From: Candidatus Saccharimonadota bacterium
GTDB taxonomy: Bacteria > Patescibacteriota > Gracilibacteria > BD1-5 > UBA2023
Length of the DNA stretch: 32,000 nucleotides
Reading direction: 5' to 3'
NCBI GenBank assembly: GCA_046350815.1
Contig: JAXLZO010000001.1
Location: 210,001 to 242,000, forward strand
In this document: piece by piece, positions 2,045 to 29,025 of the stretch
Layout: every line of letters starts with the position of its first letter
How positions within the stretch are numbered: position 1 is the stretch's first letter
Notes under the pieces: generated by a model
Databases searched by the model: none
What the model was told of the DNA's origin: nothing
Seen by the model: the letters and a program-made list of their open reading frames with translations, nothing else
Translations under genes and position numbers: made by a program

Positions 2045-3496
2045 CTAGAGTCAAAGTTTATCCCGGATAACATTAACCTCATAGTGCAAATTCTGATCTT
2101 TCTTGAGCATAGTCTCAAGCTTTTTACAAGAATAAAGAACCGCTGAGTGATTGCGTCCACCAAAAATATTGCCAATTCTCTCAAGTGTATAGTGCATACG
2201 ATTTTTGAGGAGGTACATAGCAATCTGACGAGGAATCATATACTGCTTCTGACGATTTTGACCGATAAGATGTTTTGCTTCGAGTCAAAAATGTTTTGCA
2301 ACATGATCAAGAAGATCCTCGTAGCTACGCACTTTACTCACCGGTTCAACAAGAGTTGATCCGAGGCGAACTTGTGTTACAGAATGACGATTAAGAAGCT
2401 TTGCAACATTATCAAGAGTTGGTGGTACAGCAGTGAGTTCATATTGAGCAACAATTTGATTGAGAATCCCTTCAAGTTCACGTATGTTCTCTCCTGCATG
2501 AAATGCTATGTATTCAAGTACTTCTTTTTCCACACGAAATCCACGCTCAGAAATTTTACCTTGAATAATAGCAAGCTTTGTCTCATAATCAGGGATCGCA
2601 ACATCAACAATAATTCCACTCTCAAAACGACTCTTGAGTCGAGGTTCGAGCTCCTCAAGCTCTCGTGGTGCACGATCCCCAGAGAGAACTATTTGCTTCT
2701 TTGCATCGTAGAGAATATTGAAGATATTGTAGAGTTCTTCTTGTGTTTGTGTTTTTCGAGCGAGAAACTGTATGTCATCAATAATAAGAACGTCGATGCT
2801 TGCATATCGATCTCTGAGATTATCAGTATTTCGACGCTTGACACTATCAACGTAATCAGAGAGGAATTTATCAGCTGTTGTGTAGACAACGTGTTTATCA
2901 GGAAATCGATTTTTTGTCGCATTTCCAATGGCCTGTAAGAGATGGGTCTTGCCAAGTCCTACTCCACCATAGATAAAAAGTGGGTTATAAGACTGACCTG
3001 GTCGTCGACTCACAGCATCTGCAGCAGCAAATGCAAGCTGATTCGATGGACCTACGACATAGTTCTCGAGCTGATAGCGTGGATTGAGTGTTCGTCTTGA
3101 GATATTTTCCGCTTCATTTGGGGAAATTTCCTTGATTGCCGGAGTTGAGAATGATTTATCACTTGGTGCTCAAACCTCTGAAGAGATATTCTCTCAATCT
3201 GAACTCATCTTGTCATCAAGATATACCAGCAAATCATAGAGCTCACCATCATCAACCACAAAACTCACCTCACTCTGAGAGCATCCAAGATCCAGAAGAG
3301 CATCAACAATGGCGAGAGAAAATTTTTTATTGAGTGCTTTTGCGGCAAAACTCGAACCAACCCCAAAAACAATACTATTCTCCGATACAGAGACAAGAGA
3401 AATCTTCTTAAAATACGTCAGAATGTCTTGATGTCGCACATGACGAACCAAACATTCAACAAAGTCAGGGAGCGATTGAGGAAAAGAAAACAACAT
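2045..3496 (-). CDS. dnaA: Chromosomal replication initiator DnaA
   Basis: Track fragments 3194..3496 (domain I), 2285..3013 (AAA+ domain: NPLFIYGGVGLGKTHL, LIIDDIQFL) and 2051..2239 (domain IV: MIPRQIAMYL..GGRNHSAV) share one frame. They are joined by TGA at 3194, 3170, 2285 and 2051. Stop is TAG 2045-2047. 483 aa. Confidence 0.95.
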
Positions 3497-3507
3497 ATTG
3501 AGCTACA

Positions 3508-3535
3508 CTTGTATTGTTTTTTTTAACTTTGTCAA
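3508..3535 (-). promoter_or_regulatory. Putative sigma70-type promoter of dnaA
   Basis: On the minus strand: TTGACA (3530-3535), a 16-nt spacer, then TACAAG (3508-3513). This lies about 12 nt upstream of the dnaA ATG (3494-3496), so the leader would be very short and has no Shine-Dalgarno sequence. Confidence 0.35.
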
Positions 3536-3639
3536 AAAGTCGGTATTTTTTTAGAGAAAATTTTTTATAAAATTCAATAAAGTTCATCAAACAACATATA
3601 CAAAAATTTGTCATCCTGAAATTGATTCAGGATCCTCCT

Positions 3640-4012
3640 ATTTTATGATGAAGATTCCCGTCTACACGGGAATGACATTATTGAAAGTGAGGTTATGTAT
3701 TCCAATGGAAGAGATTCTTCTCGACAAGAGCCATGATACATACATCCACCCCGCCCTTCAGGCATCCATCAAGAGGGTAAGGGTTCAAAATTTTCCCATT
3801 TCCGCTCATTAATAGACTTAGGGAAAGTTCTATTCTTTTTTTATTTATTATCCTCGCAAAGTCAGGGATCTCGTATTTCCTGCATTTGTGATTTCGAACG
3901 ATAGAGAGAAATCTTTTTGACTGAAAATTCAGTGAGAATTTCCTGTACAAGAGATCTCTCATAAATTCGAGATGACAAAACAAAACACAAACCCCATTTA
4001 TTATGGGAGAAA
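3640..4012 (-). other. Unassigned transcription unit: either a small basic Cys-containing ORF (3693..4031 in the track) or a structured ncRNA
   Basis: It is bounded upstream by the pilin terminator (4013-4044). Downstream lie two hairpins: ATTCCCGT/ACGGGAAT at 3653-3672 and ATCCTGAA/TTCAGGAT at 3612-3637, the latter followed by a T-run on the minus strand. It contains a locally GC-rich patch (3745-3785). I recognise no family. Confidence 0.3.
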
Positions 4013-4044
4013 AATCAAAAATTCCTCTCAATAGAGAGAGGAAT
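4013..4044 (-). terminator. Rho-independent terminator after the pilin gene
   Basis: 9-bp stem ATTCCTCTC (4021-4029) / GAGAGGAAT (4036-4044), followed by a T-run on the minus strand. It lies 23 nt downstream of the stop at 4067. Confidence 0.7.
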
Positions 4045-4066
4045 CACGAACTAAGCAGAAAATAAA

Positions 4067-4528
4067 CTATGAATACACCCAAGGAGCAACAAGATACAGT
4101 ATCGCCGATACAAAGAAGAGAAGTATGAGTCCAGCGATCGAACTCACAATGAATTTCTTTGCCTTTACTTTTCCTTCATCCGTCGCGCCACCGATCGAGT
4201 ACATAATACCTCATACCGCAAGCATCAGAACTCAACAAAGCGTTGCGATGAAGACAACATACTGAATCATGGTAGAAATAACCGACTTGATGGCAGAACT
4301 AGCCTCAGGAACGGTACAATCAAATTTACGTGTTTCTACGTTTTTGTTTTTAGCTTCATCAACTGCTTTGCAATCAGCTCAAGGAATAGCTTCTGTAGTA
4401 AACACATGTGCTCAACTACTTGTTGGATCTGATGCAAAGCCAACTTCTAGACCAGCAAAAATTCCAAAAGAAATAAATATAGCTAGTATACCCACTTTTG
4501 TAAAATTTCGGAAGAAAAATAATTTCAT
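4067..4528 (-). CDS. T4SS-type pilin (TrbC/VirB2-like, CPR 'T4SS_pilin' type), Sec signal peptide
   Basis: Hand-translated minus frame from ATG 4526-4528 to TAG 4067-4069, with 4 in-frame TGA. It is absent from the track, which shows only the antisense ORF 4269..4535. Sequence MKLFFFRNFTKVGILAIFISFGIFAGLEVGFA|SD... then ...LMLAVGGIMYSIGGATDEGKVKAKKFIVSSIAGLILLFF..VAPW, giving a TM - G.(D/N)E..KAK - TM pattern. 153 aa. Confidence 0.75.
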
Positions 4529-4548
4529 ACAATAATAATTTTCTGAGA

Positions 4549-5526
4549 CTAGATTGGTGTTGTAATCTTAAACACACTCAGATCAGCAAGAAGACTATAC
4601 ACTCCAAAGAAGAGGAATAAACCTATAGTTGCATACAGAAATACAGACTTTGCCTTCTTGACCGTCTCTTCATTCCCAAGAGAGAATATATAGAGATATG
4701 ATGCATAGAGGTAAAATGCAATTACGAGTGGTACAATAAGATATGCTGCCATACCAAATGCTGTACCGAGAGCATTTTGTATCGTATCGCCAGTAAAATC
4801 ACCAATCGATACGATACGAATATACGCCTGAGTAAACCCAAGAAGTATAAGACCAAGTGTTCCATAAACAAGCTTATTTTTTGCTTCAACACGACGATCT
4901 TCATTATTGCCAGATCTCAAGTAAAGAAAAGCCGCATAAGTAAACATAAGCATTGCGAAGCCACCAATAAATACCGTGAGAAATCAAGAAAGATTGTTTC
5001 CGATCGTCTGCTCAAATCCTGACTTACCCACAATACAGTTATTTGCAAATCCAACATCGGTATATTTTGCCGTGTCACTCGTGACTGAATCACAACGTTC
5101 CGATGTGAACATACGAAGTATTTCTCCAGGAACCGTGAAAAAGACAAATGCAAGAAAAGCATGAACAAGTTGCATTTTTCCCTTTTTGAGAGCCTCTTCA
5201 TCACCCTGTGAGAATACAAGTTGTGCACCGGCAATCACGATAAAAAGCATCGCAATGATGGATACTATGATTTTCACAATTTTAAGAACTGCAAGAAATG
5301 TATTCTTGGATTTATCTTCAAAATTGTCACCAGACACTTTCTTACCAATTGCTTCAGGAGATACACCTCATACATCAAATCCTGGAATTTGTGTAACACG
5401 TAGATTCTCAGCAGAGACACTCGATAGAACCAAATTACTCGCAGTATTTGATAATATACCCACAGACCCAAGTGGGGTAAAAAAGAGAATTCCGAGAAGC
5501 GTAGTAATGAGAAATCGAGTAATCAT
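4549..5526 (-). CDS. Membrane protein with three tandem T4SS-pilin-like repeats
   Basis: Track fragments 4549..4953 and 4984..5337 share a frame and are joined by TGA 4984-4986. The ORF extends upstream through TGA 5368-5370 to ATG 5524-5526. N-terminal signal/TM sequence MITRFLITTLLGILFF. Three repeats of hydrophobic helix - (S/G).G(D/N)(E)E...K(K/A)(G/A)K - hydrophobic helix. 325 aa. Confidence 0.8.
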
Positions 5527-5546
5527 ACAAGAAAAGAAACGTGAAA

Positions 5547-6590
5547 TTAGCTACGATGAGGAAGATACTCCCGAGCAGATGCTTCATCGATAAGACCAGC
5601 ATCCAAGAGCGAATAAATATGTGATTTGAATGAAATCATTCCATCTTTCGCAGCTACTTCAATAGCATTATCAATTTGAATAAAATCACCGATCGTTATG
5701 AGATTACGGATGGCATTATTCACGTACATGAGCTCAAAGAGTGCAATACGATTATTTCATTGTTTGTTGAGTACCAGTCTCTGAGAAAGTACGCCAAGCA
5801 ACGCATCTGAGAGACGAACTCGAGTTTGTTCCTGCGCATCAGATGGAAAGAATTGTATAAGGCGGTTGAGGCTCGCTACCGATCCGGAAGTATGAAGAGT
5901 TGTGAAAACAAGGTGACCAGTCTCAGAGAGACTCATAGCAGCCTCTACTGTCTCTTTATCACGCATCTCACCCACGATAACAATATCTGGATCCTCGCGC
6001 ATAGCAGCACGAATAGCAGAGACAAAAGACGGCGTATCACGACCAAGCTCTCTTTGAGTAATAAATGATTGTTTATTAGTGAACCGGAACTCGATAGGAT
6101 CTTCGATTGATATGATATGCTCTTTGCGAGTTGCATTGATCTCATCAACAATAGCAGTAAGTGTAGTGGATTTACCAGAACCAGTCGGACCCGCAACAAT
6201 AAACATACCCTGCTTAGCTGTCAATAATTTATTTGCACCGATGGGAAGACCGATTTCTTTCATAGAAGGGGCTGTTGTATTGATACGTCTGAGTGCTATT
6301 GCACGTCGAGAAAGCGATCGATATGCATTAACTCGAAGACCGATACCAATATCAGACCAATAAGAAAAATCAAGCTCTTGAGCATTCTGAAGTGCAATAT
6401 TGGAAGACGCATCAGGATAGAGTGTATAAAACATTTCCTCAACGATTTCTTTCGTAAGAGGAATGTTGTCTGAAATTGGATCAAGACGACCATTCACGCG
6501 AATCATAGGAAGCTCTCCGACTACAAAATGAAGATCAGATCATTTTGTTTGCTGTAGGAGTGTGAGATATTGATTGAGAAGAGCTGACAT
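5547..6590 (-). CDS. pilT: PilT-type (type IV pilus retraction family) hexameric ATPase
   Basis: Fragments 5757..6506 and 5547..5729 share a frame and are joined by TGA 5757-5759. The N-terminus extends through one TGA to ATG 6588-6590: MSALLNQYLTLLQQTK-G-SDLHFVVGELPMIRVNGRL. Walker A GPTGSGKSTTL. IVGEMRD box. PilT-like C-terminus AIRNLI...DGMISF. 347 aa, stop TAA. Confidence 0.9.
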
Positions 6591-6600
6591 AAGTGGAAGA

Positions 6601-7320
6601 TTAAACGGACGCGGAAAGTTTTTCTTTTTCTTTTTGAATATTTATAATAGTAGCTTCGAGTTTATCAGCCTTTGCATGAGCTGACTGTGCAGCTTGAAGC
6701 GCAGAGTCAGCTGCTTTTTTCTCTTCGTCTGATTTTTCCTGATGAAGAGCAGCTTCTGATTCGAGGATTTTTGCTTGATTTTCTAAGGCCTCTTCACTTT
6801 GACGCAAGAGACGCTCAGTATCATCGAGAATATCCTCAGGATTTCGCACACTGAGAGGAGATTCAACTTGTATTTCTGCAACAGAAATCGGAGTTTCAAT
6901 GATAGGCGTTGGAATAACCTCTTGTTTAACAATAGACGTAGCAACGATCGGTTCAAATACCGCAACAGCCTCCTCTGGGGGAGGAGTCTCGATCGTAGGA
7001 GTAAATACTGCCTCCATAGTCGGAGTAACCGCTACAAACGATGCATCAGGGGTCACTTCTTGTGAGAGAATCGTTGGAGTCCCTTCATGAACGACGATAT
7101 TCGCATCTGATCCAGCAGAAAAAATAGGTGCTTCAAACACAACATCAGTTGTTGGTTGAGCAACAATCTCCGAATCAACCGTAGTATCACTAATTGTCGC
7201 AAGAGGTGCTACTGCCAAAGCTTCATTTGTTTGTGTAGAGTCATCTCATTGGGTAGAACTACCTCACTGAGTACTGGAACCTGTCGTAGGAGTAGTAAAT
7301 GCATCATCAAAGAATCACAT
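6601..7320 (-). CDS. Hypothetical protein: Thr/Pro/Val/Glu-rich disordered region plus a C-terminal coiled coil
   Basis: Track ORF 6601..7218 (TTG start in the track) extends in frame through 3 TGA to ATG 7318-7320 (MGFFDDAFTTPTTGSS...). The C-terminal ~70 aa are heptad-like (LRQSEEALENQAKILESEAALHQEK...). Its stop lies 10 nt from the pilT start. 239 aa. Confidence 0.6.
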
Positions 7321-7426
7321 AAATGGAAAAATAAATACTAAAACATAAGAATGGTATCATATATATAAAAAATTTGCAAAAAAATACCTCTCTCTCTATA
7401 CTACCGTCTGTTTTTTAATACAAACT

Positions 7427-7726
7427 ATGGACATGAAACAAGTACAGGAGCTCATGAAACTCCAACAACAAGCACAGAAAGTTCAGGCTGAGCTTGATAA
7501 TATCCATATCGAGGCCGAGAGTCAGTGATTTGTCGTGACACTCAATGGACAACTCAAAGCTATCAAAGTTGAGATCGAAGATACAACACTTCTCCAAGAT
7601 AAAGCAAAACTCGAAGCTGCTGCACTTGAGGCAATCAATAAGGGAATGAAAAAAGCCCAAGAAATTGCCGCACAAAAAATGCAGGGAGTTATGGGTGATC
7701 TCGGACTCAAGCTTCCTGGAATGTAA
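7427..7726 (+). CDS. ybaB: Nucleoid-associated protein YbaB/EbfC
   Basis: ATG 7427. MDMKQVQELMKLQQQAQKVQAEL..ESQ-G(TGA)-FVVTLNGQLK..KGMKKAQE...LPGM is a typical YbaB family pattern. Stop TAA 7724-7726. 99 aa. Confidence 0.85.
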
Positions 7727-7744: not shown

Positions 7745-7771
7745 AATCAGAACAAGTTCTGGTTATTTTTT
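7745..7771. terminator. Bidirectional terminator shared by ybaB (+) and the convergent gene (-)
   Basis: Stem AATCAGAAC / GTTCTGGTT (7745-7764, one G-U pair) followed by a T-run to 7771, with an A-run upstream. The minus-strand gene stops at 7770-7772. Confidence 0.65.
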
Positions 7772-8672
7772 AATCATCATTTTCATCTTCAGGATTATGT
7801 GAATAAACAGCAAGAATTTGGCGCATATTCTCAGGGTCTACACTTCCATTATTATACTGATCGATAGTAGCACTATGCATCGCTAGTGTTTCTGTTGAAA
7901 GATTGTTTTTCAGTCCTTCAACAGCTAAAATAGTATGGATTGTTTTTCACATTCATACTTCTATATTACTCAAATCATCTCTTCAGAGAGTATCAGGAGA
8001 TATATTATAATGGGCAAGAATTTGCGAAAATTGTGGGTTTGATTTCATGGTGGCAATGGTAGCATCAACAGAGCTAATAGCTGTCATGGCCGTCACTGGG
8101 TCCATATTCTGATACCACACAGATTGAATAATATTCTTCCTTGTTGATTCTGGAAATGATCGCATTTTCGCCTCATTAAGCTTATGAATTTGGATACGAT
8201 TAACAATATCGCTCTCTTGTGATGGAACGAGAATGCCGCTCTGATAATCCTTCCACCATTGCACATTTACAAGAGTTGATTCTATGTCGGGATTCTCAGA
8301 TAAATATATATCTACTGCCCCTACATTTGCTACAAATTGTTGAATCTGCAACCAATTATAAGCGGAATCTCAGCGCATTTGAGATGTGAACCAGTACATA
8401 GAGTAAACTCGTTCCCGCACATTTGGATGGTCAGCAAGATATTGAAGAGTATCATTTTTTGCCTTTTGCTCCAGCTCACGGGGCGGATGGAGAATATCCG
8501 CAACCTGAGCGGATGAGACTCCTGCAGTATGACTTACAGGAGCTGAAATATTCTGAGATTGAGAGATTCTGTCAGTTTTTGATTCGTTATCTTTTGAGAG
8601 TAGATACGTTCCACTGAGAGCGAGAGTTGCTCACAGTGTTACCATTCAAACATTTTGCCTTACATTCTTCAT
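7770..8672 (-). CDS. Hypothetical membrane-anchored or secreted protein
   Basis: Track ORF 7983..8351 extends both ways in frame: downstream through 3 TGA to TAA 7770-7772, and upstream through 3 TGA to ATG 8670-8672. N-terminal hydrophobic segment VGMVTLGATLALSGTYLL. Acidic C-terminal tail. 300 aa. I recognise no family. Confidence 0.6.
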
Positions 8673-8712
8673 AAAGAAAATAATTATATTTCCACAATAC
8701 AATATAAATCCT

Positions 8713-8749
8713 AAAAAAGCAAAAATCCCAGTAACACTAGGATTTTTGC
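8713..8749 (-). terminator. Rho-independent terminator after rplS
   Basis: Perfect 10-bp stem GCAAAAATCC (8719-8728) / GGATTTTTGC (8740-8749), with a T-run on the minus strand (A-run 8713-8718 on plus). Confidence 0.8.
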
Positions 8750-8762
8750 AGATCATAATCAA

Positions 8763-9122
8763 TTATTTTGTTTTGATCTCTTTGAGACGAGCTGCACGTC
8801 CAGTAAGTGCTCGGATAAATCCAATATTCTTACGACGAACCTTGAATTGTCGAAGAACTTCTATCTTCTCAATAGAAGGAGAATGAACAGCAAAAATCTT
8901 CTCAACGCCAATACCACCAACATCTTTGCGAACGGTGATAGTTTGCTCAAGTGGAGATTTTCCACGAGTAACAATTACAAGTCCTTGAAAAATCTGAGTA
9001 CGTGATTTATCACCATCCTTGATACGTTGAGCGATCTTTACTTCCATACCAGTACGAACTTGAGGTCGTCCTTCTGCCATAAATGGCTGTTGGATAGCTC
9101 GAATAAGAGTTGAATTTGACAT
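8763..9122 (-). CDS. rplS: 50S ribosomal protein L19
   Basis: Intact track ORF. ...GMEVKIAQRIKDGDKSRTQIFQGLVI...FAVHSPSIEKIEVLR is typical of L19. Stop TAA. Confidence 0.95.
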   Translation of the reverse strand: MSNSTLIRAIQQPFMAEGRPQVRTGMEVKIAQRIKDGDKSRTQIFQGLVIVTRGKSPLEQTITVRKDVGGIGVEKIFAVHSPSIEKIEVLRQFKVRRKNIGFIRALTGRAARLKEIKTK

Positions 9123-9185
9123 AAATTTTGAATAGGCAATCTAGATGGGCGAAATTCTATGAAAAAACACTGTTTTGTCAAAGAA

Positions 9186-9749
9186 TTATTTTGCACGTTC
9201 TACATACTCTCCAGTCTCAGTGGAAACAACGATAGAGTCATCCTGTTCAACAAAACCTGGAACACGAAGCTCAAGACCTGTTTCAAGCTTAACAACCTTG
9301 TCTACTTTTCCATCAGCTGTATTTCCCTTTACTGCTGGCTCAGCCTCAACAATCTGAAGTGTAACTCGAGCAGGAAGAAGGATTCCGATAAATTTCCCCT
9401 CAAATTGTTGAATATCAACAATTTGCCCCTCTTTGAGATACTTAGTAGCATCACCAACATTCTCAGCAGAAAGCTCAAGTGTCTCGTACGTATCTTGAAG
9501 CATAAATGCATATGTTCCAACATTCTCATAGAGATATTCCGCTTTTGACCGATCAAGAACAACATCGTCAAGTTTTTCTTCGCTATCCATACTTCGGTCC
9601 ATGGTTGCACCTGACACGAGATTCTTCAGACGCATATTCACTGTTGTAGATCCACGTCCACCACGATGAAATTCATGTTTAATAACAAGAAGAAGATCGT
9701 TTCACATACGAAGTACTGTTCCAGTACGTGCTTCAAAAGCCGTTTTCAT
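9186..9749 (-). CDS. efp: Elongation factor P, Arg32 (EarP-type) subfamily
   Basis: Track ORF 9186..9641 extends in frame through one TGA to ATG 9747-9749: MKTAFEARTGTVLRM-G-NDLLLVIKHEFHRGGRGSTTVNMRLKNLVSG. The loop residue at position 32 is Arg (CGT, 9654-9656), aligning with SGR of Pseudomonas-type EF-P. 187 aa. Confidence 0.9.
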
Positions 9750-9812
9750 AACAAAAAATCAAAAAATACCGGGAAATTATAGACAATTTTTGAACTTTGC
9801 CAAATCAAAGCG

Positions 9813-10859
9813 CTATTCTTTTCATATAAAAGCAAGAATTGTCTGGGCGAGTGAACGTTCACTCGCCCGCTTTGCAGCATGATGAAATACTTTTTTTGCT
9901 CATTCCGTCATGAGTATCTCGATATCATCTGGACCAATATATCATTGTTCATTTAATACTCGACTCGATTGGTTATAGAAGCGAAAGAGTTCACTTTCGC
10001 CACAATGATCAAAACTGAGAGAAATCCACGAGAGAAAAGATTCAAATTCGTGAACATTCCAACCACCTTTTTCTTTGTACATATCCCAATAAAAAGGCGC
10101 TCAGAGTTGAAGGGTGGCAGCTAATGAGACCTCTCAACGAACGATAACCACATCAGAAAGACCTATCAATGTATAGAATTGATCGATCGAAACATATGGG
10201 AGTACCCAGGATCAAGACTGTAAAAATTGCGGGAAGGCAATGGGAGTAAATCCAACAACAAACCAATCTAATCCGCATATCTCTTGAACATGTTTCTGTG
10301 TGTTATAGCTAAAAATCGTCACCATTTTGGAAGATGGTTGTATCTCTAGATCAAGCGTATATGGGAGATGATTTTTCCATTCTTGACAAGCAATAAGTCG
10401 AGCTTGTTTATCCTGAGATGAATGATGAGCTATCAACAAAGGAAGAAGACCACCACCAAGAGGACTATTTACAATATGAATGATCGGATGATCTCGTGAC
10501 GAACGTATATGTTCTTGTCCATTGAGCAGGGCAATATTCGGATCAAACGTCAGATAATCAACCCAAAGAGTAGCTACACCAATCGGTAAATTCTCAACAT
10601 AGGAAACATCAAAGTCGGTACGGAAAAGTATAAGAAAAAGTCGTGTCTCACTATGATCATGCTGATGCCACAATCATTTTGAAAAAATGGGATAATTGAT
10701 GTTCTGAAGTGAAAAAAACTTTTCAAGTGTACTACGATCATCCGTATAGAAACGGAAATCTATATTCTTGCTGGAATAAGCAAGATGACTCGTAAGTTCT
10801 GTCGCAAATCACATATCGCCGAGATTATCACAGACATGAATGAGGATATCAATATACAT
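9813..10859 (-). CDS. earP: EF-P arginine-32 rhamnosyltransferase EarP-like protein (DUF2331 family)
   Basis: ATG 10857-10859. The N-terminus MYIDILIHVCDNLGDMGFATELTSHL matches the EarP signature (F/I)C.V.DN.GD.GV..RLA. Track ORF 10212..10673 is an internal piece. The frame continues through several TGA to TAG 9813-9815. 348 aa. It lies immediately upstream of efp. Confidence 0.7.
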
Positions 10860-10968: not shown

Positions 10969-12408
10969 ATGTCCTTAAAGATCCAGAATATTCGCTTTAA
11001 TAAAGATGAATATACCTACCCTCACGATACAAACGGAGCTATCAAATTTGAGGTGATCAGTGAAAAAGAGTGCATCATCAAATCAATCACATGTTCGTTG
11101 AAACAATCTTTCTATTCTGACAGAAAGTTGAATGCCGATGTACGGAATGTAAAAATTGAGTTACTTGGTGAACAAATCGCATTCAAATCATGAATTGTTC
11201 AAGTTTTTCATTTTCATTTTCCTATTCAAACACCAGATCTTATTGGTCAATGAGCAGGACTCATCAATATCATCAAAATTCAAATTGATCAAGATTGGTC
11301 GATTGATGATATTTCCATGATAGCCTATCCGAATATTACCATGCAATATCCTGATATGAGTCAAGTATCACCCAGTATTAAACTGTACTATCAAATACTC
11401 AATGATAGAAAACTCAATTTAGGTATGGTCACATCTTCCATGTCATCACAAAAAGAAGCACAGGAAGAATATATGGAAATCTTAGCGAACAAAAAGTATC
11501 CATCTACAGCATTAGAAATAGACAAAATACCAACATGAAAGGCAGAAGATTTTATAAATCCGTTTTTCATTGGCAACGATAAAGTCTATAGACCCATTCA
11601 TGAACAGATCAAGAAGAAATCATTGAGATATCGTATATGGACCTCGTTATTCTCCCTGCTACCAAAAACAATAACTCCAAGGAACATATTTATTATGGTT
11701 ATGAGTAGCTTGGCTGGGATACTGACAGTTGCTATTATTCTTACTATAGTCGAAAAATCTGTCTATGGGGAGGAATTCATGATGTGATTTAAAGTACTCC
11801 TCACCATAGCTATAGTAAACATCATATATTTTATTACAGAAAAAGATAAGCTTCCTATTTACCAGATTCAATTTCACAAAAAAGAAAATTTTCCATGAAA
11901 AATAGGTGTTTTTCAAAAATATATCAAAGATTTTCAAGTTGAAAGCTATGGATACGAAACTGACTATGATTGTCGTATACTCTATGAGACATATATACAG
12001 TCTTGGTATGAAACAGCAAAATGACGCACCGTTTTTCAAGACGCACTTGTATCTTCATTTCCACTTGCAGAAATATCATGAAATGGAAAATTTAAATTTT
12101 CCTCTCTTCAGGATAATCCACAACTATGAGCACTCTGTGAATCACTTTATATACCAAGTACCGTAATTGGAAAATCAGGAGTTTTTCATCGTATAAAAGT
12201 AGTTTTTATATCATCGTACCTCCCAGATTTTATTGAGATAATGGAACTAGAAACGCCAAAAGCTAAAAATCCCATCAAAGAATTAAGATTTCTATTGATC
12301 TTCACACTTATATTTATAACAGTTATTTATAACAGCAACGTGATATTTCATACGATCACAGCAATAATAGAGTGATTCTTTTTACCAATGATCACCAAAA
12401 TACAATAA
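10969..12408 (+). CDS. Novel multi-TM membrane protein with two beta-rich soluble segments (arrestin/Spo0M-like by eye)
   Basis: Track ORFs 10969..11193 and 11317..11538 share a frame. The frame stays open from ATG 10969 to TAA 12406-12408 and crosses 9 in-frame TGA. Hydrophobic helices IFIMVMSSLAGILTVAIILTIV, FKVLLTIAIVNIIYFI and LRFLLIFTLIFITVIY. 479 aa. Confidence 0.65.
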
Positions 12409-14421
12409 CTATGTTGCCCTCTTCGTTGTTACAATCGACTCCTCAAATGCTGAGGCAAGTACCTGAATACCAACGTGTTCTGTGCCAGCAAAGAAAAGTC
12501 ATTGACCAACTGCTGCATTCAAAAGGATATATTTTTCTTGATCCGTGAGCTTGAAAGTGTTTTGGAGCACATCGATGGAAGCTGGTGACTGTTTCAAAAG
12601 AAGCTGTATAGATCCATTCGTTACAATTGCTTTTCCATAATTAGAACTCATAAAATCTTCGACATCTTGTGTGATAGTCGTAACACCGAGTCCATATTTA
12701 CGAGCTCGTTTTACGAGACCAAAAAGGAATTTTGCACTTGCCTCATACTGCATAATATTCCATGCTTCATCCACGACGAGTAAGCGTTTTTTAAGGCTTG
12801 AACGAGTAAGATTCCACACATATCAAAGCATGATATACATCGCTGCGGGGCGCAAAAACTCATCAAGATCACGCACGGAGAATACCTGCAAGCCACTTCC
12901 AAGCTCTACATTCGTCGGAGAAGAAAAAATACCACTAAATACTCCATTCACATATTTATCCAGTCGCTCAGTGAGTCATTTTCCGCCATCCATCGTCTCA
13001 AGTACGGAATAAAAATCCTTCATGAGCGGTATTTCCTTGCCCTCTACACTATCGTCAGTGAGTGTGATTCCTTTAAGAGAATACGTCGTCACCATGGCAC
13101 GTTCGAGAATGGATTCTTCTGAAGGTGTACATTTTCCAAGGAGCAAATTCATGAGACCAATAAGCCCGACGACTGCCTCACGCAGTCGATCACCCGGATA
13201 TGATTCCTGATCTTTGAGACCTTTTGGAAGATCAAATGGATTCAGACGTTCTCGAGCATTCAAACTGATATTGATATATCCGCCACCAACAGTATCTACA
13301 AGAGGTTTGTATTCATTTTCAGGATCGATAACAATCACATCGATACCGAGCATAAGTGCACGAAGGATTTCGAGCTTCACAGCAAATGACTTTCCTCAAC
13401 CAGATTTTGCAAATACGGTCATATTAGCATTTTCCGAACGAAATCGATCGAAGATAATGAGGGAATTATTGTGAGTATTCACGCCATAGAGGATTCCATC
13501 TTCGTGTGTGAGTGTGGAGCTCGTGAAAGGAAAAGATGTTGAGAGACCGGTTGTAGAGATATTACGATAGACACCGACTTCATCGCGAGCAAATGGACCA
13601 GTTGCGGTAAACGCTTGCTCAGTGCGAAGCCACGTGGGCTTTGTGAGAATATTTCGACCTCCTAAAAGGGTTTCGAGATTATTCGAGAGCCTTTTCAATC
13701 CCTCTTCGCTCTCTTCATAGAGAGTAACATAGAGACTAAAATGAAAATACCGCTCACTTCATCTTGCGAGCGATTGACGAAGTTCTTCAACATCTTGAAT
13801 CTGTGCATCCAACGCTGGATCAGAGATGAGTCATTTATCCATATTGATCGCTCTCTGTGATCCGAGCTCCGTAAGACGTTTTTTGAGATACTTCATCACA
13901 CGATCATTCTCATCCGGATAGATATAAATCGACATATCGAACTTTATATCCCAGTTGATAAGAGGTGAGAGCCAATTTCCCTCAAGAAAATCCGGATACG
14001 CATGCGAAAAAAATGACCGAACAAACGTATCTCCCAATACGAGCTTAGTGGAATCTACCTTCAGAATACTCGGTGCAATAGCATCTTTTACATAAGAAAG
14101 CGCTTCCCGATATTCTTTTTCACCGCGCCGCATATCGTCCATCTCAGCTTTTGTAAGCTTACGATCTGGATTTTCTTCGAGATCCGTAGTCTGATTGGAG
14201 ATAGGAGGAAGAGTCACTGGAGGAGCCTCTTCTACTGGAGGTGCTATTACTTCACTCTCGACCTTCTCAACCGGAAGTTGAGAAATAACTGTAGGCGACT
14301 GATGTGTGAGAATCGCTTGTTTTTGTCGCTCAAAAAGCTCACGCTCAAATCACTCACCGTCACCATGAACTGGTGTTTGGACGAGAGCTAGGAGCGTTTG
14401 TGGATTTGAAAGTTCTGCCAT
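12409..14421 (-). CDS. VirB4/TrbE/TraC-like type IV secretion ATPase
   Basis: Track ORFs 13831..14217, 13396..13698, 12976..13380 and 12499..12819 all share one frame and are joined by TGA codons. Start ATG 14419-14421, stop TAG 12409-12411. Walker A FAKSG-G(TGA 13396-13398)-GKS. Walker B LLVVDEAW. ...GVTTITQDVEDF. 670 aa. Confidence 0.85.
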
Positions 14422-14571
14422 AGGAATTGATAGCGAATTATAGAGAGCTTTTATCGATTGCCTAGGGAAAGAATGAAAAATCACTAGACGAGATGAATTT
14501 TGTCACTCTTGTTTGTTTTATCGACTTTTTCCCTTTTTTTCATACAATAACAACTCTTTTGTTTTTCTCCA

Positions 14572-15654
14572 ATGAAATTTGATCTTGACCACCTCGAAAA
14601 CGATTTTCTCACTATCGAATCAGCTCTAAGCGATCCGGAAGTTTATGGAAACCCAAACAAGCTCAAAGAGCTTATGCAACGTAAAAAAAGCCTTGAACTC
14701 CCCGTAGAACTCTATCGAAGCTATCGAAGCTATCTTGAAAATCTCGAAGAAGCAAAAAAAATGCTCTCTGAAGAAAAAGATCCAGAGATGCTGGTTTTTG
14801 CAAAAGAGGAACTCACAAAAGCAACATGAGAAATAGCGAGACTGGAAGAAGAACTCAAAATTGCACTCCTTCCAAAGGATAAGAATGATGAGAAAAATAT
14901 TCTCTTCGAAATTCGAGCCTGAGCTGGTGGCGATGAAGCTTCACTCTTTGCACGGGAACTAGCTAATGCATATCTGCTCTTTGCAAAAGAAGAAGGATTC
15001 AATACAGAGATTTTGGAGGAAAGCGAAGGTGGAGTCTGAGGAATCAAAGAAATGATTATCAAAATTACAGGTTTTGGTGCCTATTCACGATTTAAATATG
15101 AAGGTGGTACTCATCGAGTACAGCGTATTCCAGAGACAGAGAGCAAAGGACGTGTTCATACCTCCACTATTACTGTTGCTGTACTTCCAGAAGTAGAAGA
15201 AGTCGATGTAGATATCAAAGATGAAGATCTTGATATCATGACAGCTCGAGCAAGTGGTGCTGGGGGGCAACATGTAAACAAGACAGAGTCCGCTATTCGT
15301 ATGGTACATAAACCAACAGGAATTGCCGTTGAGTGTCAAGATCAACGATCACAACTTCAGAACAAAATGAAGGCGCTCGAGATTCTGAGAGCTCGTGTCT
15401 ATGCGCTTGAAGAGTCTAAAAGAGCTGCTCTGATTGGGGAGGCTCGGCTTTCTCAAGTAGGAACAGGTGATCGATCTGAGAAGATTCGCACCTATAATTT
15501 TCCACAAGATCGTGTCACGGATCATCGTATCGGCGCAAACTTCTCAAATCTCCCTATGATTATGATGGGAAGACTCGCTCCGATTATTGATGCACTTGCA
15601 ACACAAGATCAGGTAGATCAACTCTCACGTATCGAAGGAAAAAATATTGATTAA
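14572..15654 (+). CDS. prfA: Peptide chain release factor 1 (RF1)
   Basis: Fragments 14572..14829 and 15052..15654 share a frame and are joined through TGA at 14827, 14920 and 15037. EIRA-G(TGA)-AGGDEA. PxT motif RIPETES. GGQ motif [14 protein letters not shown]. 360 aa, stop TAA. Confidence 0.95.
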
Positions 15655-15664
15655 TTTCTCATCT

Positions 15665-16132
15665 ATGTTTGTCACATTTGATCCTATCAATGAGGAAAAG
15701 CCGAACAAAAATCACCATGATCATGATAATCATTCAGATGAATGACATGAGTATAATGACGGACACCACAATACATCCTCAAGCGTCAATGAACTACCAA
15801 CAGCACAAATAGCACTTGATATCGTAGAGACACGAACTTCTATGATCATCATTGCTCCTATCGCTGGCGTTGCACTTGAAGATATTGACATTACTCTCTC
15901 AAAAAATATCCTCACTATTTCATGAGAACGACAAGAGCCAGAAATAACCGAAGAAGTGGAAAAAACACTTCTCTCGGAATGTTTTTTCGGCCTCTTCTCC
16001 CGAAGTGTCATCCTTCCGGAAAATCTTGAATACACAAAAATTGCTGCTGAAATGCAGGATAATCTCCTAACAATTCGTATCCCAAAGATTATTCTCCCTT
16101 CCAAAACGGTACCAATTACGAAAAAATCCTAA
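15665..16132 (+). CDS. Small heat-shock protein (Hsp20/alpha-crystallin) with a His-rich N-terminal extension
   Basis: ATG 15665. It is missed by the track, which shows only antisense ORF 15730..16104. Alpha-crystallin pattern ...NILTIS-G(TGA)-ERQEPE...GLFSRSVILPENLEYTKIAAEMQDNLLTIRIPK. N-terminus NKNHHDHDNHSDE-G-HEYNDGHHN. Stop TAA 16130-16132. 155 aa. Confidence 0.85.
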
Positions 16133-16143
16133 CAAACTATTGT

Positions 16144-16386
16144 ATGTGGCCATTCCGCCCAAAAAAAACACCGTTTATCCCAACACTACTCGCAAAAAAG
16201 AGTGCAAGAAAAGTTGATAAGATTGCTACGGGCTTTGTACTCGGGGGAATTATTGCTTCGCTCTACGGATTCAATAAAATCTCCAAAGCACCAAAAGAAG
16301 AAATTCATGATGAAAATGGAAAAGCATCTTTGAAAAAGACAATAAAATGGCTCGTATTCGGAACAAAAGATAGAACGAAAAAATAA
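16144..16386 (+). CDS. Small hypothetical membrane protein
   Basis: Intact track ORF with one predicted TM helix (IATGFVLGGIIASLYGF). It is tightly packed between hsp20 and the next gene. I recognise no family. Confidence 0.5.
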   Translation: MWPFRPKKTPFIPTLLAKKSARKVDKIATGFVLGGIIASLYGFNKISKAPKEEIHDENGKASLKKTIKWLVFGTKDRTKK

Positions 16387-16391
16387 TATAG

Positions 16392-17171
16392 ATGCGATAT
16401 TCTCACCAAATCGCTCTCATACTCTGACTATTTCTTTCGGGAATAGCTTTTTTTCAGACTATTCCACCAACCGAAGCAAATGATAGTGCTATTCAGGGAA
16501 GTATTATCTCCTGTTATAATAGTACGGAGCCAGCAGCAATCAAAGAGTACTATTGCCCCAGTGAAAAAAGTAATATTGATGAGCTCATCTACTACGTCGT
16601 CGTCACATCCAAACAACACGATATTGAAGAACAAATTAAAAAAGATCTCAAAGGAATAATGAACTCTGCAACAAGTAATCATACGCTCCTTTCAGCGCGT
16701 ATTTCAGCTATGTTCGATGCAATACCACTGGAAGACAAATATCCGAGTGACCGTGCAAATTATCGAGATCTTCTTCTCGGAACCTGTGACCAACAAAATA
16801 ATCTTCTCGATATAATACGAATTACTAACAATCAAGCATTTCAGGTTGCTTTTGCAAATGCTACAAAAGTAATACTTCCACCAATGGATACAACGAGCAG
16901 AGCATTGAAAGCCAAAGATGGAGACACAGGAATATTCAAAACATGTAAAAATGATATGCAACTTCGAATTCTCGCATACCGAGATATAGGACTGACGCTT
17001 GCCTACGAACGAATGGCTCTTGAAAAAGAAAAAACGCGTAACGAATATTTCACTAAGGTGAACGCATCATACGAAGACCTTTTGAACAAAGTTAATTTCT
17101 ATGCTGGTACGGTAGCGAGAATCATTGCAAAATTCCCAAATTATACACCTGTGACCGTTCCCCCTCAATAA
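16392..17171 (+). CDS. Hypothetical secreted protein
   Basis: Track ORF 16659..17171 extends in frame upstream through one TGA to ATG 16392. Signal-like N-terminus MRYSHQIALIL-G-LFLSGIAFFQTIPPTEA. 259 aa. I recognise no family. Confidence 0.6.
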
Positions 17172-17173
17172 TT

Positions 17174-18004
17174 ATGTCACAACTTCTTCGAGAGTATTAT
17201 CAAATTTCTGCTAAGAAAAAACTTGGGCAGAATTTTTTGACAGATGAGAGCAAATTACAAGTAATAGTCAAAGCAATCACACTACATGGACGGAGTGTAA
17301 CGGAGGTATGACCTGGATATGGGGCCCTAACAGAACATATTCTCCTCGAGGAACCAAAATCACTCGATCTTATCGAGCTTGATCCAGATATGATATCGAT
17401 TCTCGAGGATCGAATAAAGTCATCATCAGTATATCCATTTCACATCGGAGAGACAAAAACCAAAATTCTTCATCAAGATGTGCTCAAGCTAACTCAATTA
17501 CCTGAGAAAAGTATCATTGTGGCGAATATACCCTACTACATCACATCGCCAATTCTCACTCATTTTCTTATACATCTCCATCAATATGTTGGCGCTATGG
17601 TGATCATGATGCAAAAGGAAGTTGCTGAGAAAATCCTCACGAAGAAGTCAAAACATTCCTACCTCTCCATTTCATGCCATCTTTTCTGTAGCGATATATC
17701 ACTCGTGACAAATGTTCCAGCAAGCGCATTTGTACCGGCACCAAAGGTAGATTCCAGTGTACTTCTCTTCACGCTCGCATGACTGAATAGTGAAGAATTA
17801 TTACATTGTCAAAAGATACTCCAACTGGCAAGTCACGGTTTCAGAGAGCCACGCAAGAAACTCGTATCAAATCTCGCAAAATACGGGAAATGGGAAAAAT
17901 GAGAACTTCTCGAAATATTCAATCAACTCAGTCTAAATGAGAATCTTCGAGCAGAAGATCTGAGTATTAAAAATTGGCTTGATCTCTACCAAAAAATTGA
18001 ATAA
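17174..18004 (+). CDS. rsmA: 16S rRNA (adenine1518/1519-N6)-dimethyltransferase RsmA/KsgA
   Basis: MSQLLREYYQISAKKKLGQNFL. Motif EV-G(TGA 17309-17311)-PGYGALT. ANIPYYITSPIL. Fragment 17390..17782 is internal. Two more TGA occur before TAA 18002-18004. 276 aa. Confidence 0.92.
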
Positions 18005-18093
18005 ATATCCCCCTGTAGAACAGGGGGTTTTAGCAGAGAGACCCTAGAAGGGTCTTGAATGGGAAGTATAGTGAGACTTAGGATAGCGTGAGA

Positions 18094-18513
18094 CTAGAAG
18101 TGAAGATCAAGTTGATTACCATCCTCAATTATATCTTCTTTCTCTTGGTTACAGATGTAGTTGTTGATCATTTCAATATCGAGTCCTGTTGTTCGTACGA
18201 AGTATCATCGTGACCAAAAGTGTTTGTGTCCAAGAGCTGTTCTTCTTGGTGCATATCTATTATGGAGTCGTATGGCAGATTTTCATTTAAGAGTACCTAT
18301 GACTTTTGCTACTGAGAGACTTGGTGGTATCTTGAGCTGAAGATGAATGTGATCTTTCATAAGATGTCATTCGAGTTTTTCTATTTTCATTTCTCTCAGA
18401 AGATCATTGAGAATGTTTCAGAGTTGAGTTTTATAAGTTCCATATATAATTTTCTTGCGGTACTTTGGGCAAAGTACTATATGGTAGCTACAATCAAAGG
18501 AAGTATGAGCCAT
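18094..18513 (-). CDS. tnpA: IS200/IS605-family Y1 (HUH) transposase TnpA
   Basis: ATG 18511-18513 to TAG 18094-18096 with 4 in-frame TGA. MAHTSFDCSYHIVLCPKYRKKIIYG... HUH motif KDHIHLQLKIPP. Catalytic-Tyr region FWSR-G-YFVRTTG. 139 aa. The track shows only an out-of-frame ORF (18494..18742). Confidence 0.85.
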
Positions 18514-18526
18514 AAGTGAAGAATGA

Positions 18527-18599
18527 AAAAAGGTTATGATAGTAAGCACCCTTCTTCTGGGGACTCTCTGCTTGAGAGATACTATCATAACCTTTTTTC
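18527..18599 (-). repeat. 19-bp perfect inverted repeat (long hairpin) in the tnpA 5' leader
   Basis: AAAAAAGGTTATGATAGTA (18527-18545) and TACTATCATAACCTTTTTT (18581-18599) are separated by 35 nt. The spacer contains an inner CTCTC/GAGAG stem. The proximal arm ends 13 nt upstream of the tnpA ATG. Structured leaders that limit tnpA expression are known for IS200. Confidence 0.7.
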
Positions 18600-18728
18600 T
18601 TGTACATGTTGGAACGGTAGAACCTAGGTGTTTCCCCCACCAGAGGCGGGGGTTTTATACATTGCAGAATAAATAGGCAAAATATGTATTGCCTATAGAA
18701 TAAGTACATCAATTCATACATTTCATCG

Positions 18729-18992
18729 ATGACACAAAACACAAAAGATTATTTTTGGGATACCAATCTCAGTGACCTTGATGGAGCGATCACACCAAAA
18801 CCTTCTCAAATGGATCATCTGCAGAAACTCATGTTTGGAGAAATATTCTCTACCATGTGACACAATCATCAACAGGGAGAAATTTACAGCCCTGGAATTC
18901 TTTCGATGCGGAGACTTGCATATAATCAAATCAAAGGAATTATCCATCATGATCCTCGCGTTCCTTATTCCTACAGAGATATTAATCAATAA
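18729..18992 (+). CDS. Hypothetical small protein
   Basis: ATG 18729, one in-frame TGA, TAA 18990-18992 (87 aa: MTQNTKDYFWDTNLSDLDGAITPKPSQMDHLQKLMFGEIF...). It looks more protein-like than the overlapping track ORFs 18772..19023(+) and 18723..18989(-). A hairpin follows. Confidence 0.4.
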
Positions 18993-19010
18993 TTTTTCAA
19001 GATTAAAAAA

Positions 19011-19038
19011 ATACCATCTCTAGAGAGACGGTATTTTA
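19011..19038 (+). terminator. Putative terminator
   Basis: Stem ATACCATCTCT (19011-19021) / AGAGACGGTAT (19024-19034) with one mismatch, followed by a short TTT. Confidence 0.45.
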
Positions 19039-19097
19039 AGATTTAGCCCACAATAACGGGCGGTGATTTACAGAAGAATAAACCTCCTTCGTCTTCT

Positions 19098-19472
19098 TTA
19101 TAAACCGTGATTTTCACTTTTGTTCCTATAGATATTGATTACCATCGTTGTGCTTGTTGGGAAGTTAGAGAAACAAGAGCACATTGATGATTCTCGAGAC
19201 GAGAAGAAAAATACAGCTGCTCAGGAATACGTAAAACTTTGATTGATTGTATCTGCGCGGATCAAATAACTAATCATTACCCAAGTAGAATCGTGCTCCA
19301 TTTTCCATTGTCCATAATATTCCTTCAAGGCTATGTAGCCAATGAAGCTAGCGAACAAGAACATAATCCCAAGAATTACAAGTGCGGTTTTCGGAAATAC
19401 AGCACAATCCACTATTATGGAAAAGATAGCACCAGAGAGAATAATCGTATCCTCTCTTGAATTAAAAGACAA
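19098..19472 (-). CDS. Hypothetical membrane protein (weak call)
   Basis: Track ORF 19221..19472 (TTG start) reads through TGA 19221-19223 to TAA 19098-19100. Two hydrophobic segments. No ATG start, and the C-terminal part is poorly protein-like. Confidence 0.3.
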
Positions 19473-22327: not shown

Positions 22328-23065
22328 TTGAGCGTTTCGCTAATCTTCTGAGAAGGAGCCGTAAGGCTTCTTCTTTCTTATTGCGATAATTATACCGAAA
22401 CTCACATTCTTTCAAATGAAGATGGAATTTGTCTGCTCGGATTCAGTTTAATTTGATCATTCTTTGTTTTGCAAAACTCCAAAATGCCTCTATACCGTTT
22501 ACATGACTTTTTCATCTCGCAAACTTAACGAAGTGTATGCCTGTGGTGCATTGTGTGAATGAAACACTCTATAATGTTCGTATCCATTGAGTATAAGCCC
22601 ATCATAACTTGTCCAACCATCAGAGTTGACCGTGGATCATTCCAGAACTTTTCCTTGTATAGTATAGGCATTAATGAGTCTCTACTACAATCTGGAACAA
22701 TACTTACAGAGACATTTCAGTTTCTTTTCTGAAGTCCAAACACTGTGGTGTTTTTCCAGCCGCTCACCTTCATTGTTTTCCTCTGACTCGTCTTGCACCG
22801 AAGTAACTCTCATCAACTTCAAATTCTCAGAATTCTTTTCAAAACTTTGATGATTCTTCAATAGATATTCTCACAATTTCTTCTCGAAATATAGCATAGT
22901 ACCTGTTAATAGTGTTACGAGATATTTCGAGAAGTTCTGATGTTTGAGTAGCAGTAAAGTCTCCTAAAAATAGCTTCAAAATTTCTCGTATTTTCTCAGA
23001 GCTGATTTTACTGTATTTAATCATATGGAACTAGTGTAAGAAGATAATTCTTCTTGTCTAGAGCC
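22300..23065 (-). mobile_element. Decayed IS1595-family insertion sequence
   Basis: Imperfect terminal inverted repeats GACTCTAGACAAGCAA (22300-22315) and TCTTCTTGTCTAGAGCC (23049-23065). They resemble the IRs of the intact copy at 30180..30960. 766 bp. No target-site duplication is evident. Confidence 0.75.
22322..23024 (-). pseudogene. IS1595-family (ISXO2-like DDE) transposase pseudogene
   Basis: The N-terminus (track ORF 22839..23024, MIKYSKISSEKIREILKLF...) reads through TGA into EVDESYFGARRVRGK.GRGAAGKTP and then hits TAA at 22704-22706. Recognisable downstream segments lie in other frames: VFGLQKRNGNVSVSIVPDCSRDSLMPI, then IQGKVLE.STVNSDGWTSYDGLILNGYEHYRVFHS, then HVNGIEAFWSFAKQRM..HLHLKECEFRYN. 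This requires at least 3 frameshifts. Confidence 0.75.
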
Positions 23066-28247: not shown

Positions 28248-28269
28248 TGTAATATAAAAAGAATATTAA

Positions 28270-28623: not shown

Positions 28624-28659
28624 TTGAGAGTATAGCGAAAGTTGGAAAAATCGGAAATA

Positions 28660-28682
28660 AGAAAAGCCCCAATATGGGGCGA
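28660..28682 (-). terminator. Rho-independent terminator upstream of rnpB
   Basis: Stem GCCCC (28666-28670) / GGGGC (28676-28680) with loop AATAT, followed by TTTT on the minus strand. It lies 18 nt downstream of the stop at 28700. Confidence 0.6.
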
Positions 28683-28699
28683 GGGGGATCGTGCAAGAA

Positions 28700-28972: not shown

Positions 28973-29025
28973 AACATTCTCCTTCTAAAAGCTATGAACA
29001 AGAAATATTAAATACAAATACATAT

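Follow-up and report, generated by a model that had tools for sequence, protein, structure and literature searches.

The stretch of DNA analysed here, which we refer to as the window, comprises 32,000 nt of contig JAXLZO010000001.1 from the assembly of a Candidatus Saccharimonadota bacterium (Gracilibacteria). On its minus strand lies an operon of four genes, which encode an acidic, partly disordered protein (X), a PilT ATPase and two pilins of the type found in type IV secretion systems (T4SSs): one with three fused hairpins (pil3) and one with a single hairpin (pil1). The features of the locus are presented in Table 1.

Table 1 Features of the X-pilT-pil3-pil1 operon and its surroundings in the window
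Feature	Position	Strand	Length	Evidence
X, first gene of the operon	6601-7320	-	239 aa	code-25 open reading frame
pilT, PilT/PilU-family hexameric ATPase	5547-6590	-	347 aa	TIGR01420, PDB matches, Walker A
pil3, Sec signal peptide and three fused T4SS_pilin hairpins	4549-5526	-	325 aa	PF18895, NF045849, AlphaFold2
pil1, Sec signal peptide, Cys-containing segment and one T4SS_pilin hairpin	4067-4528	-	153 aa	PF18895 matches of orthologues
Intrinsic terminator, operon end	4020-4045	-		inverted repeat with 10-bp stem, 6-nt loop and T-run
Divergent X/ybaB intergenic region, presumed promoter region for both genes	7321-7426	.	106 nt	position only
ybaB/ebfC nucleoid-associated protein, conserved divergent neighbour	7427-7726	+		PF02575 at 2e-13
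VirB4-family ATPase	12409-14421	-	670 aa	NF045971, Mbov_0397, PDB 4AG5, Pfam
dnaA, downstream of the operon	2045-3496	-		Bac_DnaA at 1.7e-65, Bac_DnaA_C

The operon and its products

The G+C content of the window is 38.7%, and long open reading frames (ORFs) appear only when TGA is read as a sense codon. Under code 25 (TGA = Gly), the ORFs of X, pilT, pil3 and pil1 are all unbroken and have exactly the coordinates proposed for them in an earlier sequence-only reading of this DNA, while under table 11 each of them is interrupted by 2-4 in-frame TGAs. The translation of TGA as Gly is supported by P0004, a 96%-identical PilT relative called under the standard code: this protein begins past the first TGA and has Gly at the position of the second TGA of the window pilT (LNKQ-G-NNRIA). 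The four co-directional genes are separated by gaps of 10, 20 and 20 nt. The terminator, read in the direction of transcription from 4045 to 4020, follows the pil1 stop codon at a distance of 22 nt, and no comparable terminator was found in the intergenic gaps inside the operon. The operon layout described in the sequence-only reading, including its clean terminator, is therefore accurate. A promoter scan of the region between X and ybaB revealed a sigma-70-like site on the plus strand alone (7374-7402) and none on the minus strand; from its position, this region presumably serves as the promoter region for both genes. We infer that X, pilT, pil3 and pil1 are co-transcribed.

PilT proteins are hexameric ATPases that retract type IV pili. 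The window protein scores 359.2 bits against TIGR01420 (PilT/PilU), above the cutoff of 319.1, whereas the scores against the related ATPase families fall well under their cutoffs: 54.7 bits for VirB11 (TIGR02788, cutoff 250), 133 bits for DotB (cutoff 463), 157 bits for TraJ (cutoff 368), 60 bits for TrbB (cutoff 305) and 134 bits for GspE, also far under its cutoff. In a search of PDB sequences, PilT proteins came out on top at 258 bits, compared with 127 bits for DotB. On these grounds VirB11, GspE and DotB were rejected as identities of the ATPase, and the assignment to PilT made from the sequence is upheld. The Walker A motif (GPTGSGKST) is intact, and the EDPIEF, DIVIVGEMRD and GHLVFTTLHT motifs can be read straight from the sequence. 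Of the PilT-specific AIRNLIRE helix, only part is retained: the window sequence reads AIRNLITIG, and that of most orthologues reads AIKNLIK.

The window protein shares with the type IVa PilT proteins of known structure (Aquifex, Pseudomonas and Geobacter) the TIGR01420 match, the Walker A motif and the status of best PDB match, and at 347 aa it has no PilB-type N-terminal extension. It differs from them in the altered AIRNLIRE helix, in the location of its gene away from pilB/pilC and pilU, and in its pairing with an acidic coiled-coil protein and T4SS-type pilins. PilT-clade ATPases that serve T4SSs do exist, namely, DotB of the Dot/Icm type IVB secretion system and TraJ of IncI plasmids. The window protein obtains 133-157 bits against these two; however, the scores are far under the respective cutoffs, and no Dot/Icm or IncI components are present in the window.

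The pil3 product matches PF18895 (T4SS_pilin) in three stretches with 82.4 bits (cutoff 26.6) and NF045849, the Mbov_0395 family of pilin-like conjugal transfer proteins, with 50 bits (cutoff 40). Some members of its family also match PF04956 (TrbC/VirB2). For structure prediction with AlphaFold2 (AF2), pil3 was represented by a database protein of 95% identity, called under code 4 with W at TGA, and by an alignment of 44 sequences. The model contains three helix-loop-helix hairpins (residues 70-106/111-142, 162-205/210-244 and 252-281/287-319), with a predicted local distance difference test (pLDDT) score of 75-85 in the helices and 66 overall. The three PF18895 stretches and the three hairpins bear out the earlier description of pil3 as a triple-repeat pilin. 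The loops of the hairpins contain 3, 5 and 3 Lys/Arg residues; given a cleaved Sec leader, they would be cytoplasmic and the linkers would be external. Two Cys residues are located in the first linker. A Foldseek comparison of the whole model with the PDB yielded only non-significant helical-bundle matches (E >= 0.2) and, given simple hairpins at this modest pLDDT, is uninformative; a phmmer search of PDB sequences with pil3 gave no match. The triple-pilin family comprises 170 representative clusters at E <= 1e-30, and the wider superfamily comprises 28,955 at E <= 1e-3.

The window copy of pil1 scores 21.1 bits against PF18895, under the cutoff of 26.6, and 19 bits against T4SS_CagC. All 10 of its orthologues match PF18895 at E <= 0.01 (best 1.6e-8), and an hhalign comparison of the pil1 and pil3 profiles gave a probability of 86%. 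The pil1 family is characterized by an invariant TE.IP...C...C motif followed by a hairpin that ends in APW (in fuller form, TE.IPG..C...C and APW(V/I)Y); the Cys motif is predicted to sit in a short extracellular segment before the hairpin. Both pilins have hydrophobic Sec-type N-termini, in which the cleavage sites were placed by inspection, and inspection revealed no class III leader (G|F..E) in either of them. Thus, the VirB2-like character attributed to the pilins in the sequence-only reading is supported by PF18895, above the cutoff for pil3 and through the orthologues for pil1, and the Sec-type leaders and the layout of two transmembrane segments joined by a loop are likewise seen on inspection and, in pil3, in the AF2 hairpins.

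X is strongly acidic (42 Asp + Glu versus 13 Lys + Arg), begins with MGFFD and matches no family in Pfam or NCBIfam. In the AF2 model of the TGA-free part of the protein, residues 26 to ~ 160 are unstructured (pLDDT ~ 40), and residues 161-238 form one long helix of ~ 78 residues (pLDDT ~ 90), in agreement with the disordered/coiled-coil protein that had been proposed. In the orthologues, the disordered part contains recurring acidic-hydrophobic motifs, namely, MGFFD at the N-terminus, LIIDD, IPDTAV and (I/V)SFF(D/S)E (e.g., L008, positions 9032-9886); these short motifs resemble linear binding motifs. Of them, MGFFD is kept and LIIDD is lost in the window copy of X.

Conservation of the block and separation of its modules

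Is the linkage of pilT and the pilin genes a peculiarity of the window, or does it extend to related genomes? A comparison of gene neighbourhoods revealed the ybaB / X-PilT-pil3-pil1 block in approximately ten divergent lineages of Gracilibacteria (the window, L001, L003, L005/L096, L006, L008, the L089-L095 group, L094, L097, L098 and L104). Closed or near-closed genomes with the cassette include OY970170.1, GCA_023230505.1 and GCA_964553745.1. The order in the relatives, seen around PilT homologues of 49-54% identity, is a divergent ybaB, an acidic protein of 190-285 aa, PilT, a triple pilin of 300 aa and a single pilin; a gene with the architecture of X is found upstream of PilT in every cassette locus, and each of the 10 lineages compared has ybaB and X-PilT in divergent orientation. 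The identity to the window proteins across these lineages is 49-52% for PilT, 26-33% for pil3 and 32-42% for pil1, and the gap between PilT and pil3 ranges from -11 to 174 nt. A metagenome scan that started from the triple pilin (an alignment of four closer sequences) revealed 11 loci, and PilT was present in every one of them for which upstream sequence was available.

The flanks of the block behave differently. In an all-against-all comparison of the flanks from 10 lineages, the only family beyond the block that was common to >= 3 lineages was type IV pilin-like; the remaining shared families were shadow ORFs on the opposite strand. Chance adjacency was rejected because the block recurs in divergent lineages while its flanks are not conserved. 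A PilT peptide-pattern search of genome contigs yielded mostly generic PilTs and only three loci of the Gracilibacteria type; the other 77 loci, three of them from other Patescibacteria, served as a negative control. None of the 77 had a T4SS_pilin ORF within 10 kb, which argues that the PilT-pilin pairing is specific. The homology of the pilins, the conservation of the linkage and the PilT identity of the ATPase were the three points on which the sequence-only reading could have failed, and it holds on all of them.

The block can also be found in parts. In L086 and L088, whose PilT is 43-44% identical to that of the window, ybaB, an acidic coiled-coil gene and PilT are followed by unrelated genes and no pilins; in L087 and L103, PilT stands alone. 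The equivalence of the acidic genes of L086 and L088 to X follows from position and architecture only, as the identity is 13% and phmmer gave no match between X and either of them. Conversely, the closest relatives of the triple pilin, in L100-L102 (the L100 genome is named Peregrinibacteria), lie beside secE-nusG-rplK-rplA. There, at ~ 11900-19100, two triple pilins are accompanied by a 1,600-aa protein that combines T4SS_pilin with PKD repeats and then by a PKD protein of 700 aa. These triple pilins resemble pil3 in their length (~ 310 aa), in their three hairpins and in their E-values against the profile (1e-60 to 1e-67), and, as in the window, a triple pilin precedes a protein that combines a pilin domain with an extracellular portion. 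They differ in the presence of two triple pilins and giant PKD proteins and in the lack of PilT and X; no ATPase of the T2SSE family was found within 10 kb. The PKD fusion suggests that pilin hairpins may anchor or present large adhesins. Since X-like-PilT pairs without pilins and triple pilins without PilT both occur, the modules can function apart.

In L005, L086, L088 and L104, the orthologous PilT has genuine type IV pilin (N_methyl) genes for neighbours, and in L094 the PilT and pil3 genes are separated by that of a 1,067-aa pilin whose leader reads GFTLVELIV. The type IV pilin-like proteins encoded in or next to the cassette of L094 (2706-5909) and L005 (6845-9157 and 13528-15627) are giants of 699-1,067 aa, and one such protein in the relatives also has a Flg_new domain. 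In addition, a second PilT paralogue (367 aa) adjoins a cyclic nucleotide monophosphate (cNMP)-binding protein in L087 (2717-3820) and L088 (18190-19293); the two may form a cyclic-nucleotide-regulated retraction module.

VirB4, dnaA and the rest of the window

A gene on which the sequence-only reading was silent lies 5 kb upstream of the X operon on the same strand. Its product matches NF045971, the VirB4-like conjugal transfer ATPases of the CD1110 family, with 326.5 bits (cutoff 325), the Mbov_0397 family of VirB4 proteins from integrative and conjugative elements (ICEs) with 221 bits, short of the cutoff of 590, and the VirB4-like PDB entry 4AG5 with 156 bits; the Pfam matches are P-loop_TraG, AAA_10 and DUF87. 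This VirB4 is likely the motor of the secretion system to which pil3 and pil1 belong. Pil3 and VirB4 match the Mycoplasma ICE families Mbov_0395 and Mbov_0397, respectively, and therefore neighbouring families of one known conjugation system of single-membrane bacteria. The likeness to the Mycoplasma ICEs thus consists of the Mbov_0395 model passed by pil3, the Mbov_0397 match of VirB4 and the single-membrane cell; on the other hand, the Mbov_0395 model is a single hairpin of 80 positions, VirB4 is under the Mbov_0397 cutoff, and no ICE, relaxase or coupling protein was found in the window.

The VirB4 gene is a lone transcription unit, and its stop codon abuts, base to base, that of the convergent gene at 10969-12408 (+), which encodes a 479-aa multi-pass membrane protein of no Pfam or NCBIfam family. 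This protein is a candidate for a divergent membrane component of the T4SS, and the unannotated membrane protein at 7770-8756 is a candidate for a missing part of it.

The arrangement can be compared with that described in a 2025 survey of 3,035 Patescibacteria genomes, in which PF18895/VirB2-like pilins were found near virB4 in 1,135 assemblies, in arrays of 2-11 genes (PMC12102498). According to the same survey, the patescibacterial T4SS often adjoins dnaA, is MPF-FATA-like without VirB11, and in Gracilibacteria has its other components dispersed or undetectable; PilT is nowhere mentioned in it (PMC12102498). The window shares with these systems the PF18895 domain, the tandem pilins, a virB4 within a few kb, the adjacent dnaA, the absence of a visible relaxase and the dispersal of genes seen in Gracilibacteria. 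It departs from them in that its pilins are co-oriented, and apparently co-transcribed, with PilT and X, and in that three hairpins are covalently joined in one of them. The conserved operonic PilT-pilin linkage, the X partner and the fused triple pilin as an explicit family appear to be undescribed in the literature searched, whereas the components themselves and the pilin-virB4-dnaA neighbourhood are already known (PMC12102498).

Between the end of the operon and the start of dnaA lies a non-coding spacer of 570 nt (3497-4066). The location of dnaA downstream of pil1 is shared by the 81%-identical relative L001. Could the spacer be an origin of replication? The E. coli-type DnaA boxes numbered 10, against 9.9 expected, and none of them was in the spacer, which contained only short two-copy repeats and displayed no turn of the GC skew. 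An origin in 3497-4066 is thus unsupported by these simple tests.

Several further features of the window were recorded. Elongation factor P (EF-P; 9186-9749, minus strand) adjoins a protein with an EarP C-terminal domain (9813-10859, minus strand; 51 bits), and the EF-P loop, HRGGRGST, would be consistent with Arg-type EF-P. EarP, the EF-P arginine rhamnosyltransferase, is known chiefly from beta- and gamma-proteobacteria and is unusual in a code-25 Patescibacterium. A class A bacterial RNase P RNA was identified at 28268-28621 (minus strand; 176.6 bits, gathering score 100); the ORFs called at 28537-28977 and 28700-28972, which overlap it or lie directly next to it, are probably not real genes. 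Mobile elements in this small genome are represented by an IS200-like Y1 transposase (18094-18588), an ISXO2/IS1595-type transposase (30209-30919) and a 106-aa fragment (22704-23024) with an N-terminus similar to that of the ISXO2/IS1595-type protein, all on the minus strand. Finally, a peptidoglycan hydrolase with LysM and CHAP domains (25986-26762, minus strand) is possibly relevant to attack on the host wall.

Possible roles of the operon

The key question is whether the operon serves one machine or two. The explanation that we favour, with a probability of about one half, is that the four genes form a co-transcribed contact operon for two machines, type IV pilus retraction and VirB4-type secretion. 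It starts from the observed gene identities, operon geometry, conserved synteny and nearby VirB4. Under the two-machine explanation, X-PilT would be the seemingly older module, in which PilT retracts type IV pili composed of large class III pilins encoded elsewhere and X may act as a tether or regulator of PilT. The two pilins, pil3 and pil1, would be Sec-exported, VirB2-like subunits or membrane parts of a patescibacterial VirB4-type T4SS (monoderm, MPF-FATA-like). Co-transcription next to dnaA could provide high and coordinated expression or dosage; retraction of the pilus would draw the epibiont onto its host, and a pilin-based conduit or adhesive structure would then be deployed. We infer this division of labour between the two machines. 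The view of PilT as a type IV pilus component is based on the N_methyl genes that adjoin it in relatives, on the separability of the modules and on a closed Gracilibacterium genome that has two pilT genes along with PilB/C/D and 15 giant pseudopilins (PMC6851277). Family membership and the relatives suggest that PilT acts on a type IV pilus in the present genome too, and the comparison of loci suggests that PilT belongs to the type IV pilus and that its locus attracts genes for surface filaments.

Certain observations weigh against two machines. VirB4 lies outside the X-PilT-pil3-pil1 operon. Searches of the 32-kb window with Pfam and NCBIfam recognised neither VirB3/PrgI, VirB6/PrgH, TrsD and a coupling protein on the secretion side nor PilB, PilC and PilM-Q on the pilus side. 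VirB8-11 and a relaxase were likewise not recognised, so that the lack of both sets of partner genes nearby, as remarked in the sequence-only reading, is confirmed for the window. Tight adjacency that is conserved at such divergence usually reflects a physical or functional interaction beyond co-regulation. Moreover, in a weak neighbour-joining tree, the window and L001 branch basal to both pilin-linked and pilin-free PilTs, so that the ancestor of this PilT clade may already have had the linkage.

A rival reading is a single, dedicated hybrid apparatus: a PilT paralogue would be the cytoplasmic motor of the VirB2-like pilins, either VirB11/DotB-like or as a retraction/extraction ATPase. It would dock on the basic loops that pil3, with its six helices, exposes to the cytoplasm and would drive a dynamic T4SS-type filament in a single-membrane cell. 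We consider this reading unlikely, although several observations speak for it: PilT-pil3-pil1 order and short gaps persist across about ten lineages of deep divergence and variable flanks, PilT occurs at every pil3 locus with upstream DNA, and the count at other PilT loci is 0/77. Also in its favour are the second PilT paralogue of some Gracilibacteria, which could serve the type IV pilus (PMC6851277), the missing VirB11 of the MPF-FATA-like patescibacterial T4SS (PMC12102498) and the precedents for PilT-like ATPases in T4SSs, which include DotB, TraJ and an analogue of PilT proposed for ICEclc (PMC10018362). On the opposite side, the ATPase scores as a genuine PilT rather than as DotB, TraJ or VirB11; the ybaB, X-like and PilT genes of L086 and L088 have no pilins next to them; homologous triple pilins occur without an adjacent ATPase (L100-L102); and class III pilin genes lie in or beside the cassette. 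Five findings tell against the single mixed apparatus without T4SS genes that the sequence-only reading had envisaged: the VirB4 gene 5 kb away, which together with pil3 matches neighbouring Mycoplasma ICE families, the X-like-PilT loci without pilins, the triple pilins without PilT, the N_methyl genes in or beside the cassette, and the VirB2-like pilins near virB4 and dnaA that are on record for Patescibacteria (PMC12102498). In the boldest variant, a VirB2-type filament would have acquired PilT, tethered by X and docked on the cytoplasmic loops of pil3, as its motor, and the episymbiont, a cell with a single membrane, would possess a T4SS-type pilus that can retract; this is a more doubtful proposal still.

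The word "pilin" may, alternatively, describe a fold only, with pil3 as a six-helix membrane protein, for example a channel or anchor of the VirB4 system or an adhesin platform, and pil1 as a membrane-anchored adhesin stub; this possibility, which overlaps with either of the preceding ones, has a low probability in our estimation. Three hairpins joined covalently, with both linkers outside the cell, would, by reasoning from the known VirB2/TraA structures, fit VirB2 packing poorly; the fusion of T4SS_pilin to 1,600-aa PKD-repeat proteins in L100-L102 suggests anchoring; the members from ICEs of wall-less Mycoplasma are named merely "pilin-like"; the MPF-FATA systems of Gram-positive bacteria lack a VirB2 pilus (PMC12102498); and the whole-model Foldseek search returned no pilin. 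Against filament-free roles stand the strong T4SS_pilin match, with PF04956 matched by some members, the Sec leader and hairpin, which are the VirB2 layout, and the commonness of multi-hairpin fusions (the 170 clusters), as would fit a family of structural subunits. That the genes are fortuitous neighbours, with no shared transcription or function, is very improbable: the failure of the scan to find a consensus promoter for the X operon and the origin-proximal setting, with dnaA after the operon, would be compatible with it, but the block has been kept in about ten lineages with different flanks, and the 10-20 nt gaps and the single terminator past pil1, with none inside, speak against it too.

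What would the co-transcribed contact operon mean for these organisms? Patescibacteria depend on host contact, and in the only species open to genetic manipulation, epibiotic growth requires type IV pili as well as the T4SS with its VirB2-like pilins, according to work cited in PMC12102498. An operon that joins PilT to T4SS pilins suggests that retraction-attachment and conduit formation are coordinated, at least in expression, and it offers testable candidates: X as a partner of PilT, the fused triple pilin and the Cys-loop pilin pil1. If the coupling is not physical, the block is still a marker cassette and a means of correcting the annotation of code-25 genomes, in which these genes are fragmented by standard calling. 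If it is physical, this would be the first PilT to power a VirB2-type structure.

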